Positions 24,555 through 63,826 of a DNA stretch of 64,000 nucleotides are shown here, piece after piece. Below the pieces are notes generated by a model. The model had not been told where the DNA came from, did not search any database, and was given only the letters and a program-made list of their open reading frames with translations. The stretch lies in the NCBI RefSeq assembly GCF_016026235.1, contig NZ_CP065613.1. One strand, given 5' to 3'. A program made the position numbers and the translations under genes. The number at the start of each line of letters is the position of its first letter. Position 1 is the stretch's first letter. The stretch comes from Escherichia coli. Lineage in GTDB: Bacteria > Pseudomonadota > Gammaproteobacteria > Enterobacterales > Enterobacteriaceae.

Positions 24555-25219
24555 ACATTTTCCTTTTTAATCAAATGTTGACCGAACCGGCGATACAGAT
24601 GCGGTTTCCCGGCACCAGGTAGCTGATATTGATAGTATTTATTATCCTGCAACCACGCCTGAATTTCTGGGCTATCTTCGCGACCAAAGATCAATGCGTG
24701 TTCCGGACAGGCGCTGACGCAAATGGGCGGAAAGCCTTTTGCCAGTCGGGACTCAGCGCAGAAATCACATTTATCTGCCACTTTAGTGACAGGGTTAAGG
24801 TAGCGAACCTGGTACGGACAAGCGCCAATGCAATAACTGCAGCCGATGCACTGCGATTTTTCTACCCGCACGATCCCCTGCTCATCACGCCACGACGCCC
24901 CTGTCGGGCATACGTCGATGCACGGAGCATCTTCGCAGTGCTGACATGACTGGCGAAAAAAGTGATACTGCGTTTCGTTGTCGTTATCGGTGACTGGAAT
25001 GTGTGCTATCGATAAACGGCTTCCCTGAGCGGGGACGTGGTTAGTTTTACGGCATGCGCGGGCGCAAATATTACAGCCATTGCACCGTGACTCGTCATGA
25101 ATCATGGCATACCGAACTTCCTTTTCTTGCCTCGTGTTCGCTAACAGAGAAGACGCAGAACCAGTAAAAAAGATTACTGTTCCCATCCCCAGAACAAATT
25201 TGCGTCGAGTGAAGGACAT
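24551..25219 (-). CDS. ydhX: 4Fe-4S ferredoxin-type subunit with Tat signal, YdhX
   Basis: MSFTRRKFVLGMG twin-arginine motif, four CxxCxxCxxxCP clusters; start chosen at Tat-signal Met (ORF extends to 25270). Confidence 0.82.
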   Translation of the reverse strand: MSFTRRKFVLGMGTVIFFTGSASSLLANTRQEKEVRYAMIHDESRCNGCNICARACRKTNHVPAQGSRLSIAHIPVTDNDNETQYHFFRQSCQHCEDAPCIDVCPTGASWRDEQGIVRVEKSQCIGCSYCIGACPYQVRYLNPVTKVADKCDFCAESRLAKGFPPICVSACPEHALIFGREDSPEIQAWLQDNKYYQYQLPGAGKPHLYRRFGQHLIKKENV

Positions 25220-28906: not shown

Positions 28907-29146
28907 TTAAAATTACAAAGCAAGAAATTATAAGTGAACTGATATTTATTATCATTTGAAATAAATTTAACTTAAGCGACAATTATTTGTGACGTTCATT
29001 GCAGAAAATAAAAATAATATTATCGTTATAAATTAAAATACATACCGCAATTCGTATAATTTCAGCAGTTGTTATTTAGAATGATTAACTGGACCGCAAC
29101 TGAAGCAAGAATATCAGGATGAAGCTTACCGCCTCATCCTGAATGG

Positions 29147-38231: not shown

Positions 38232-38600
38232 CTATACCCCAAAGCTTTCGCCACAGCCACATTCATTCTGGGCTTTAGGGTTGTGAAATTTGAATATCTG
38301 ATTAAGTCCTTCACGAACGAAATCGACTTCCGTGCCATCAATAAACGGCATCGCTTGCAGCGGGACAAACAGCTTCGCGCCGTCGTGTTCAAACAGCAGA
38401 TCGTCTTTGTCCGGCTCGCTAACACTGTCGAGCACATAGCCAAAGCCCGCGCAGCCCGTTTGCTTCACGCCTAAGCGCACGCCGACCATACCCGGCTGCT
38501 TTGCCACCAGCTCACGGATGTGTATCGCCGCTGCGGGTGTCAGCGTTAAGCCTTGCCAGGCGAAATCTTGTGGGTTAAAGGTTCCTGAATGCATGTCCAT
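38232..38600 (-). CDS. sufA: A-type Fe-S carrier SufA
   Basis: 122 aa with C..CGC.SF motif. Confidence 0.92.
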
Positions 38601-38646
38601 CGATTTACCTCACTTCATCGCTTTCAGCGTATAACAGCATGTTAGT

Positions 38647-38659
38647 GATAATGATTATC
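38647..38659. promoter_or_regulatory. Fur box in sufA promoter
   Basis: GATAATGATTATC, strong match to Fur consensus core, ~50 bp upstream of sufA ATG. Confidence 0.7.
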
Positions 38660-38891
38660 AGTTCAACCCAGCAAACGCAGGGGCTTTACCGTAAAACATG
38701 CTTTTTGCCTGCTTTTAATAAGCATAGACCCTGATGTGTAGGTTAACAGGCACGCTAAGAATTAGGTATCTCATTGTTAGATAATGGTTATTATCTAAGG
38801 GCATTAAGGCTGTGATGAAAAAGAAAAAGTTGTATTGAAAATGACTATTTAAGAGATAGGTAAAAAAGTGCAGCGTTCAGAAATAAGAAAA

Positions 38892-38927
38892 CCCTTAAGT
38901 CTGTGCGACACAGGCTTAAGGGTTTCT
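38892..38927. terminator. Hairpin in sufA-ydiH intergenic region (expected location of sRNA rydB; assignment uncertain)
   Basis: 14 bp stem CCCTTAAGTCTGTG / CACAGGCTTAAGGG with one G-T pair, flanked by AAAA and TTTCT; could terminate either strand. Confidence 0.4.
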
Positions 38928-39146
38928 ACCCCATCCGGCGCTTATCTCCGGCACTCTCAGTGGCTTAGCTCTTGAAGGGGCGATAAGAATAATCTCATAA
39001 AGCTAACCCGTCGTTTTAACACAAACTGCGATTAGTATTATTTTTGAACAATATCAGGCGGTAGATAAGCAGTATTAAGAAGGTCATCGAACCTGGACGG
39101 AGGTTAATCCAGGTCGATTTGGCGAACTTGCGGCATTAAGTCAGGA

Positions 39147-63784: not shown

Positions 63785-63803
63785 TGATAATAAGAATCAT
63801 TGT
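63785..63803. promoter_or_regulatory. Fur-box-like sequence upstream of ydiE
   Basis: TGATAATAAGAATCATTGT ~25 bp upstream of ydiE ATG. Confidence 0.5.
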
Positions 63804-63826
63804 TATATCAATTATTATTAATCTTT

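Follow-up and report, generated by a model that had tools for sequence, protein, structure and literature searches.

The sufA Control Region

The DNA analysed, called the window hereafter, is a stretch of 64,000 nucleotides from Escherichia coli in which two palindromes, site 1 and site 2, lie upstream of sufA. The annotated genes of this region (sufB, sufA, ydiH, menI and ydiJ) are all located on the minus strand. The coding sequence that heads sufABCDSE was identified from its open reading frame and from the fact that K-12 and an identical RefSeq record, NZ_CP065615.1, both have it annotated as sufA. The 601 bases spanning both palindromes share 100% identity with E. coli FDAARGOS_943 and 99.5% identity with K-12, and the region was found in 5411 of the 5426 complete E. 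coli genomes. On the far side of the palindromes lies the small RNA rydB, whose terminator hairpin, as read from the sequence, runs on to about 38886.

Positions are given relative to the transcription start of sufA. Gao 2023 (PMC10219339, Table S6) lists a sufA Fur site, AACTGATAATCATTATCACTA, with its centre at -53 from the start codon and at -21 from the transcription start. These two offsets place +1 at 38632, 32 nt before the ATG. In this frame, the published mutants PsufA(-26 ATA -24) and -50 C fit the bases found at 38658-38656 and 38682, respectively. The features of the region are as follows:

38232 to 38600, minus strand: sufA coding sequence, first gene of sufABCDSE
38632, minus strand: sufA transcription start (+1), 32 nt upstream of the ATG
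38639 to 38644, minus strand: hexamer TAACAT, -12 to -7, positioned from the sequence, putative -10
38646 to 38660, no strand: site 1, Fur operator, TGATAATGATTATCA, a perfect 7-1-7 repeat in the promoter spacer, -14 to -28
38661 to 38666, minus strand: hexamer TTGAAC, putative -35 from its 16-nt spacer to the -10
38662 to 38687, minus strand: IscR type-2 site (ORE-III), -30 to -55, conserved as 'AA..cCCCTgc.......gGGTTGAAg'
38767 to 38779, minus strand: predicted IHF core, -135 to -147, aligned with the family sequence WATCAANNNNTTR; the Escherichia form, TAACAATGAGATA, has 2 mismatches
38777 to 38798, no strand: site 2, palindrome TTAGATAAT-GGTT-ATTATCTAA, -145 to -166, with the core GATAAT-N4-ATTATC at 38780-38795
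38832 to 38860, minus strand: predicted OxyR site (ORE-I), CTAT-N7-ATAG-N7-CWAT, -200 to -228
38921 to 38981, minus strand: rydB small RNA (Rfam RF00118, 81.6 bits, E = 1.7e-19)

The comparison set includes 81 sufA loci of Enterobacteriaceae (that of the window and 80 others), 75 of which belong to non-Escherichia species and six to Escherichia lineages; they were aligned over 330 nt upstream of sufA. In this alignment, 'CACTAACAT' at the putative -10 of sufA does not vary in any of the 81 sequences, and 'GGTTGAAg' is kept at the putative -35. The layout OxyR - IHF - IscR - Fur of this control region is the known architecture, which was described between 2003 and 2008.

The Fur Operator of the sufA Promoter

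The earlier note had reported a Fur box about 50 bp upstream of the sufA ATG, and both its place and its nature are confirmed. The 13-nt form of site 1, GATAATGATTATC, is found at 38647-38659, with its near edge 47 nt from the sufA ATG at 38600 and its centre at -53 from the start codon. In K-12, the centre of site 1 corresponds to 1,762,463 (NC_000913.2 numbering, as used by Chen 2007), and site 2 is about 134 bp higher. When up to two mismatches are allowed, TGATAAT-N-ATTATCA has 3 matches in the 64 kb, compared with 0.25 expected, and site 1 is the sole perfect copy. Sites were also scored with a Fur weight matrix made from the 18 ChIP-supported sites of Gao 2023 Table S6 (PMC10219339), sufA being omitted; in leave-one-out scoring, 17 of these 18 training sites reach at least 13 bits. 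With 19.9 bits, site 1 ranks second among the ~64,000 positions of the window. Across the 81 Enterobacteriaceae, its score never falls below 17.1 bits and has a median of 22.3, and it is embedded in the nearly invariant block GGTTGAAgTGAtAATc.TTATCACTAACAT of their alignment. Furthermore, it sits between the conserved -35 and -10 and thus overlaps the core promoter.

This agrees with what has been published about sufA. Table 4 of Chen 2007 (PMC2189734) gives sufA a cluster of 21.3 bits at -53, in which 3 sites overlap within 31 bp. A Fur ChIP peak is found at sufA, which is derepressed in fur-minus strains (Gao 2023, PMC10219339), and Fur repression of suf is stated in reviews. The 3-bp mutant at -26 to -24, which the literature treats as having lost the Fur site, maps onto site 1. 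Site 1 is therefore the Fur operator of sufA that has been published and defined by mutation, a textbook Fur box that was already known. Compared with the sufA Fur operator as understood through the 7-1-7 model of Baichoo and Helmann or the hexamer-array model, it has the same sequence, the same position and the same overlap with the promoter spacer, and no difference was found.

The 7-1-7 repeat between the -35 and the -10 would be bound by a single Fe(II)-Fur dimer or by a few dimers that overlap. Bound there, Fur would occlude RNA polymerase and overlap the edge of the site of the activator IscR, both of which would lead to iron repression of suf.

The window contains other strong Fur boxes, at 28937-28957 and 63788-63808 (20.8 and 19.6 bits, ranks 1 and 3), which match, after a coordinate shift, the ydhY (-255) and ydiE clusters of Chen 2007 (PMC2189734). 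With the sufA box, the window thus carries three of the 42 strongest Fur clusters predicted in that study. Two further Fur-like matches, at 53005-53025 (13-15 bits) and 24627-24647 (11 bits), fall in coding sequence, namely in the ydiP pseudogene, interrupted by an internal stop in the strain of the window, and in ydhX. The match at 24627-24647 is also the sole GATAAT-N4-ATTATC of the window with one mismatch. Both are probably due to chance.

The Predicted OxyR Site and the IscR Site

According to reviews, the binding site of OxyR is far upstream of the sufA promoter, and there are three oxidant-responsive elements, for OxyR, for IHF and for IscR/Fur. The alignment of Enterobacteriaceae includes an OxyR-like conserved block, 'ctAT...a.AAATAGg.ATT..C.ATaCAt'. 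The motif at 38832-38860 is presumably the OxyR site, being assigned by means of the OxyR consensus. A scan with the OxyR consensus, in which site 2 was tested, was not discriminating, with 7 of 20 positions mismatched at several places.

The sequence at 38662-38687 agrees at all 24 specified positions, without any mismatch, with the IscR type-2 consensus. On the same consensus, site 2 is mismatched at 10 or more of the 24 specified positions and is thus unlike an IscR type-2 site. Lee et al. are said to have delimited ORE-I at -236 to -196, ORE-II at -156 to -127 and ORE-III at -56 to -35 in 2004. The conserved motifs found at -200 to -228, -135 to -147 and -30 to -55 would agree with these limits. 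The Rfam match of rydB (RF00118) lies where the earlier note had expected this small RNA. Mutants of the IscR site have been reported at -56 to -50 of PsufA.

A Conserved Box between the IHF and IscR Sites

The most conserved element of the whole region upstream of sufA is GGTCTATGCTTA, located at 38719-38730 on the minus strand, at about -87 to -98. Within the 81 Enterobacteriaceae, GTCTATGCTTA is essentially invariant, and TCTATGCTTAW occurs in 67 of them at a nearly fixed position. This box is none of the OxyR, IHF, IscR and Fur sites. It matches the extended -10 consensus of sigma-S type, KCTAYRCTTAA, and no conserved -35 was found for it in the Enterobacteriaceae comparison. It is possibly an upstream promoter or the site of another regulator. 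A 20-codon open reading frame starting from the ATG of the box was also considered and was rejected because the alignment shows an interrupted frame in C. amalonaticus and in Kluyvera. Just upstream of the box, near 38731-38752 on the minus strand, a dyad CCTG..(12-15 nt)..CAGGG flanks it in many genera, and the sequence inside this dyad differs between genera.

The Second Palindrome

The palindrome GATAATGGTTATTATC that the earlier note had pointed out is indeed located at 38780-38795, 133 nt further upstream than site 1, and its arms are really 9 nt long (38777-38798). Allowing up to one mismatch, GATAAT-N4-ATTATC is found twice in the 64-kb window, compared with 0.14 matches expected, and site 2 alone is perfect. 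If any perfect inverted repeat whose arms are 9 nt or longer and whose loop is 1-8 nt is considered, about 11 distinct ones are found in the window vs about 2 in shuffles that keep the local composition. Site 2 is less special as a generic inverted repeat; its notable point is that its arms carry the same hexamers as site 1. A full-text search of the literature for the exact letters of site 1, of site 2 and of the conserved box described above returned unrelated papers only.

The complete 22-mer is confined to some E. coli, including K-12, and to one other Escherichia species. E. albertii and E. whittamii carry substitutions in the arms, and these are not compensatory. In the six E. coli sampled, a small and closely related set, the arms are unchanged and the third base of the spacer is C, T or G. 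Invariant arms around a variable spacer are the pattern expected of a dimer-binding site, as far as such a small and closely related sample can be read.

The strain of the window lacks one base between 38801 and 38802 (A on the plus strand, T in the sense of sufA). This base, 4 nt distal to the palindrome, is present in K-12 and in nearly all E. coli; the 45-mer carrying the deletion is matched with at least 99% identity in just 2 of 5421 genomes. The deletion shortens by 1 bp the otherwise fixed spacing between the OxyR and IHF sites.

The Second Palindrome Scored as a Fur Site

The earlier note had raised the possibility of a second Fur site, or of a related one, at site 2. This was not supported: on the Fur matrix, site 2 receives a chance-level score of 9.1 bits vs 19.9 bits for site 1, and outside Escherichia the aligned position does not resemble a Fur box. 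Its best Fur register, TAATAAC-C-ATTATCT, is shifted by 3 nt and ranks about 16th to 19th in the window. The local A+T content at site 2 is 66%, and in window DNA of at least 65% A+T, Fur matches of at least 9.1 bits occur once per ~190 nt. At the aligned position, the 75 non-Escherichia species have a median Fur score of 0.1 bits, and none of them reaches 13 bits. The N4 spacing of site 2 is not the geometry of a Fur box either. With the sufA Fur operator, it has only the hexamers in common; it differs by its N4 instead of N1 spacing, by its place far upstream and by its score (9 vs 20 bits). Thus, neither a matrix match, nor an overlap with the core promoter, nor conservation between orthologous regions was found for site 2 as a Fur box. 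Site 2 is at -145 to -166 from the single mapped start of sufA, and no promoter-like or terminator pattern was found by scan there.

It is nonetheless conceivable, even if improbable, that site 2 is a second, weak and Escherichia-specific Fur operator, at which Fur, in iron-replete cells, would compete with IHF or distort its site and veto activation by OxyR and IHF, beside the occlusion exerted at site 1. Both arms are exact Fur hexamers, and the register shifted by 3 nt reads as a 7-1-7 repeat with 3 mismatches. The arms are constant and the spacer variable in the sampled E. coli, and among the natural variants of the spacer, AAGC scores 7.5 bits and AATC 10.8 bits on the Fur matrix. The AATC variant, which accounts for about one third of the E. 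coli ranking that was sampled, reads as 7-1-7 with 2 mismatches (10.8 bits), as does site 2 of Escherichia sp. MOD1. This value is near the cut-off of 10 bits used by Chen 2007 (PMC2189734), which was set for a different model of their own.

However, the score of site 2 falls inside the range expected by chance for DNA of such composition and far under that of ChIP-supported sites, and nothing Fur-like is seen at this position in the 75 other species. Furthermore, site 2 is at least 120 bp upstream of the promoter, whereas Fur sites of E. coli cluster tightly on promoter elements, and the sufA cluster, at -53, is just 31 bp wide (Chen 2007, PMC2189734). Two published analyses (Chen 2007, PMC2189734; Gao 2023, PMC10219339) name the -53 site alone, and the 3-bp change in site 1 is taken in the literature as loss of the Fur site. 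Owing to its low score, to the 0.1-bit median and to these published lists, site 2 would be a marginal, unconserved and off-promoter Fur box.

Other Readings of the Second Palindrome

As a perfect dyad with 9-nt arms, site 2 could be the operator of another dimeric regulator, such as ArcA or some other palindrome-binding factor. On the plus strand, GTTAGATAATGGTTA (38776-38790) is a GTTA-N7-GTTA direct repeat of the ArcA-box type that overlaps the palindrome, and such a spacing fits the direct-repeat model of ArcA. Differences in suf expression that depend on O2 have also been described in fur-minus strains in the literature. However, about two GTTA-N7-GTTA repeats are expected by chance per 64 kb, the dyad is not kept outside Escherichia, and the full palindrome is present in a single copy in the 64-kb window. 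A paper on ArcA ChIP-seq, with its 13 supplementary files, mentions neither sufA nor rydB nor ydiH, and ArcA was rejected as a ligand of site 2 on account of this absence of sufA. An operator for a dimeric regulator of this kind is very unlikely.

Another reading is that site 2 works through its structure, either as an RNA hairpin on rydB read-through transcripts or as a DNA cruciform. As RNA, it folds with -8.2 kcal/mol, i.e., z = -4.1 relative to shuffles. However, this stability is a trivial consequence of the palindrome and is no greater than the palindrome implies. The stem has one G-C pair, the others being A-U, it lacks a U-tract, and the terminator scan was empty at this place. Being located past the strong terminator of rydB and ahead of the sufA start, site 2 is not known to be transcribed, and the hairpin is not kept in other genera. 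All this makes a structural function hardly credible.

The Second Palindrome and the IHF Site

The reading that we prefer is that site 2 belongs to the IHF site. The earlier note had expected such a site in the intergenic region; a predicted IHF site conserved across the whole family does lie there, and site 2 is on its 5' flank. Among the 75 non-Escherichia species, 43 have a perfect WATCAANNNNTTR whose distance from the Fur box is fixed, and 24 more have it with one mismatch. By comparison, perfect matches to WATCAANNNNTTR occur at 2 per 100,000 positions of the window. The offset of the IHF core from the centre of the Fur box is -120 in 73 of the 81 sequences. Among the 49 distinct cores, the information reaches 1.5-2 bits at TCAA and TT and about 1 bit at W, A and R. 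It is low at the N positions c7-c9, and c10 is mostly A (1.1 bits). Such a pattern is the signature of selection on an IHF motif and not of shared ancestry.

At the place of site 2, the alignment upstream of sufA has the consensus aaA..CATTATt.ATCAA...ATTgAAcAA. The conserved block extends from f-12 to d5, i.e., over about 30 bp, with AAA and then CATTATT 5' of the core. About 30 bp is the size of the IHF footprint in IHF-DNA complexes. With an A+T content of 75%, the 20 nt that precede the core on its 5' side form the A/T-rich element of an IHF site. The family consensus AAA..CATTATT-WATCAA....TTR resembles the layout of lambda H': an A-tract, GCATTGCT and TATCAATTTGTTG.

The palindrome spans f-19 to c3 of this IHF frame and abuts the core at 38767-38779. 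Its proximal arm, ATTATC, coincides with the conserved CATTAT(T/C) flank that immediately precedes the core. GATAAT, the distal arm, corresponds to positions -16 to -11 of the flank, of which -12 and -11 alone are within the conserved A-tract, and the outer TTAG of site 2 is in unconserved DNA. Because the proximal arm is conserved flank and the distal arm is largely unconstrained, the perfect dyad would be an Escherichia-specific by-product of the A/T-rich sequence that flanks the IHF core. From the sequence comparison, site 2 is thus most likely the A/T-rich 5' flank of the known IHF site rather than a second Fur box, and the IHF footprint would cover the palindrome.

In Escherichia, the core itself departs from the family sequence. 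It is TAACAATGAGATA in five of the six lineages and TAACAACGAGATA in the sixth, which differs only at an N position. A 13-mer with two mismatches, of the quality of the E. coli core, occurs at 0.4% of background positions. The two mismatches lie at c3 and c11, where T is found in 74 of 74 and in 69 of 74 other species, respectively. All six Escherichia lineages have A at c3, and they differ at positions 10 and 11 too. These changes at c3, c10 and c11 may mean that the IHF core has been weakened, or has changed register, in this lineage. At 38771-38783, 4 nt upstream of the aligned core, there is another possible core with two mismatches, TATCTAACAATGA.

These departures bear on whether the flank could have gained a second role. 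The decay of the IHF core in Escherichia, together with the dyad of Fur hexamers, might have created a low-affinity Fur site that overlaps the IHF site, a scenario that we consider decidedly unlikely. A broader version, that of a weak and lineage-specific site for Fur or another dimer overlapping the IHF flank, retains a small chance because of the invariant arms, the departures of the Escherichia core and the 10.8 bits of the AATC variant.

If site 2 is the flank of the IHF site, it would be located on the upstream A/T-rich half of ORE-II, centred near -141. The bend made by IHF there would allow OxyR bound at about -200 to -228 to reach the promoter. This is in keeping with reviews (citing Lee et al. 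2004) according to which IHF bends the suf promoter, brings the far-upstream OxyR to RNA polymerase and is needed for activation by OxyR. In terms of the IHF element ORE-II of sufA (Lee, Yeo and Roe 2004), site 2 occupies the 5' flank of the conserved 13-bp core. Compared with ORE-II and IHF sites in general, the Escherichia site differs by a core with two departures from the consensus and by a flank that is a perfect dyad, dyad symmetry not being a feature of IHF sites.

The suf site has in common with IHF sites such as lambda H' the role of a bend between a distant activator and a promoter. In the same way, it recalls the architectures that combine an activator with an IHF bend, e.g., the sigma-54 enhancer promoters and pspA: at suf, OxyR at ~-214 and the bend at ~-141 are separated by a strictly conserved spacing. 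However, suf differs from this type by its sigma-70 promoter and by the additional proximal activator IscR and repressor Fur.

Implications

Overall, the whole locus is, with a probability of about three in four, the known control region of E. coli sufABCDSE, in which site 1 is the Fur operator and site 2 the flank of the IHF site. Sequence by itself does not justify the annotation of site 2 as a Fur site. If Fur did bind there, iron-loaded Fur would antagonise the bending by IHF and gate the activation of suf by OxyR according to the iron status; in Escherichia only, suf would then be under an additional control by Fur, acting from upstream. For the family as a whole, the comparative map locates the IHF core and its flank to the base, together with the fixed -120 spacing, across the Enterobacteriaceae.
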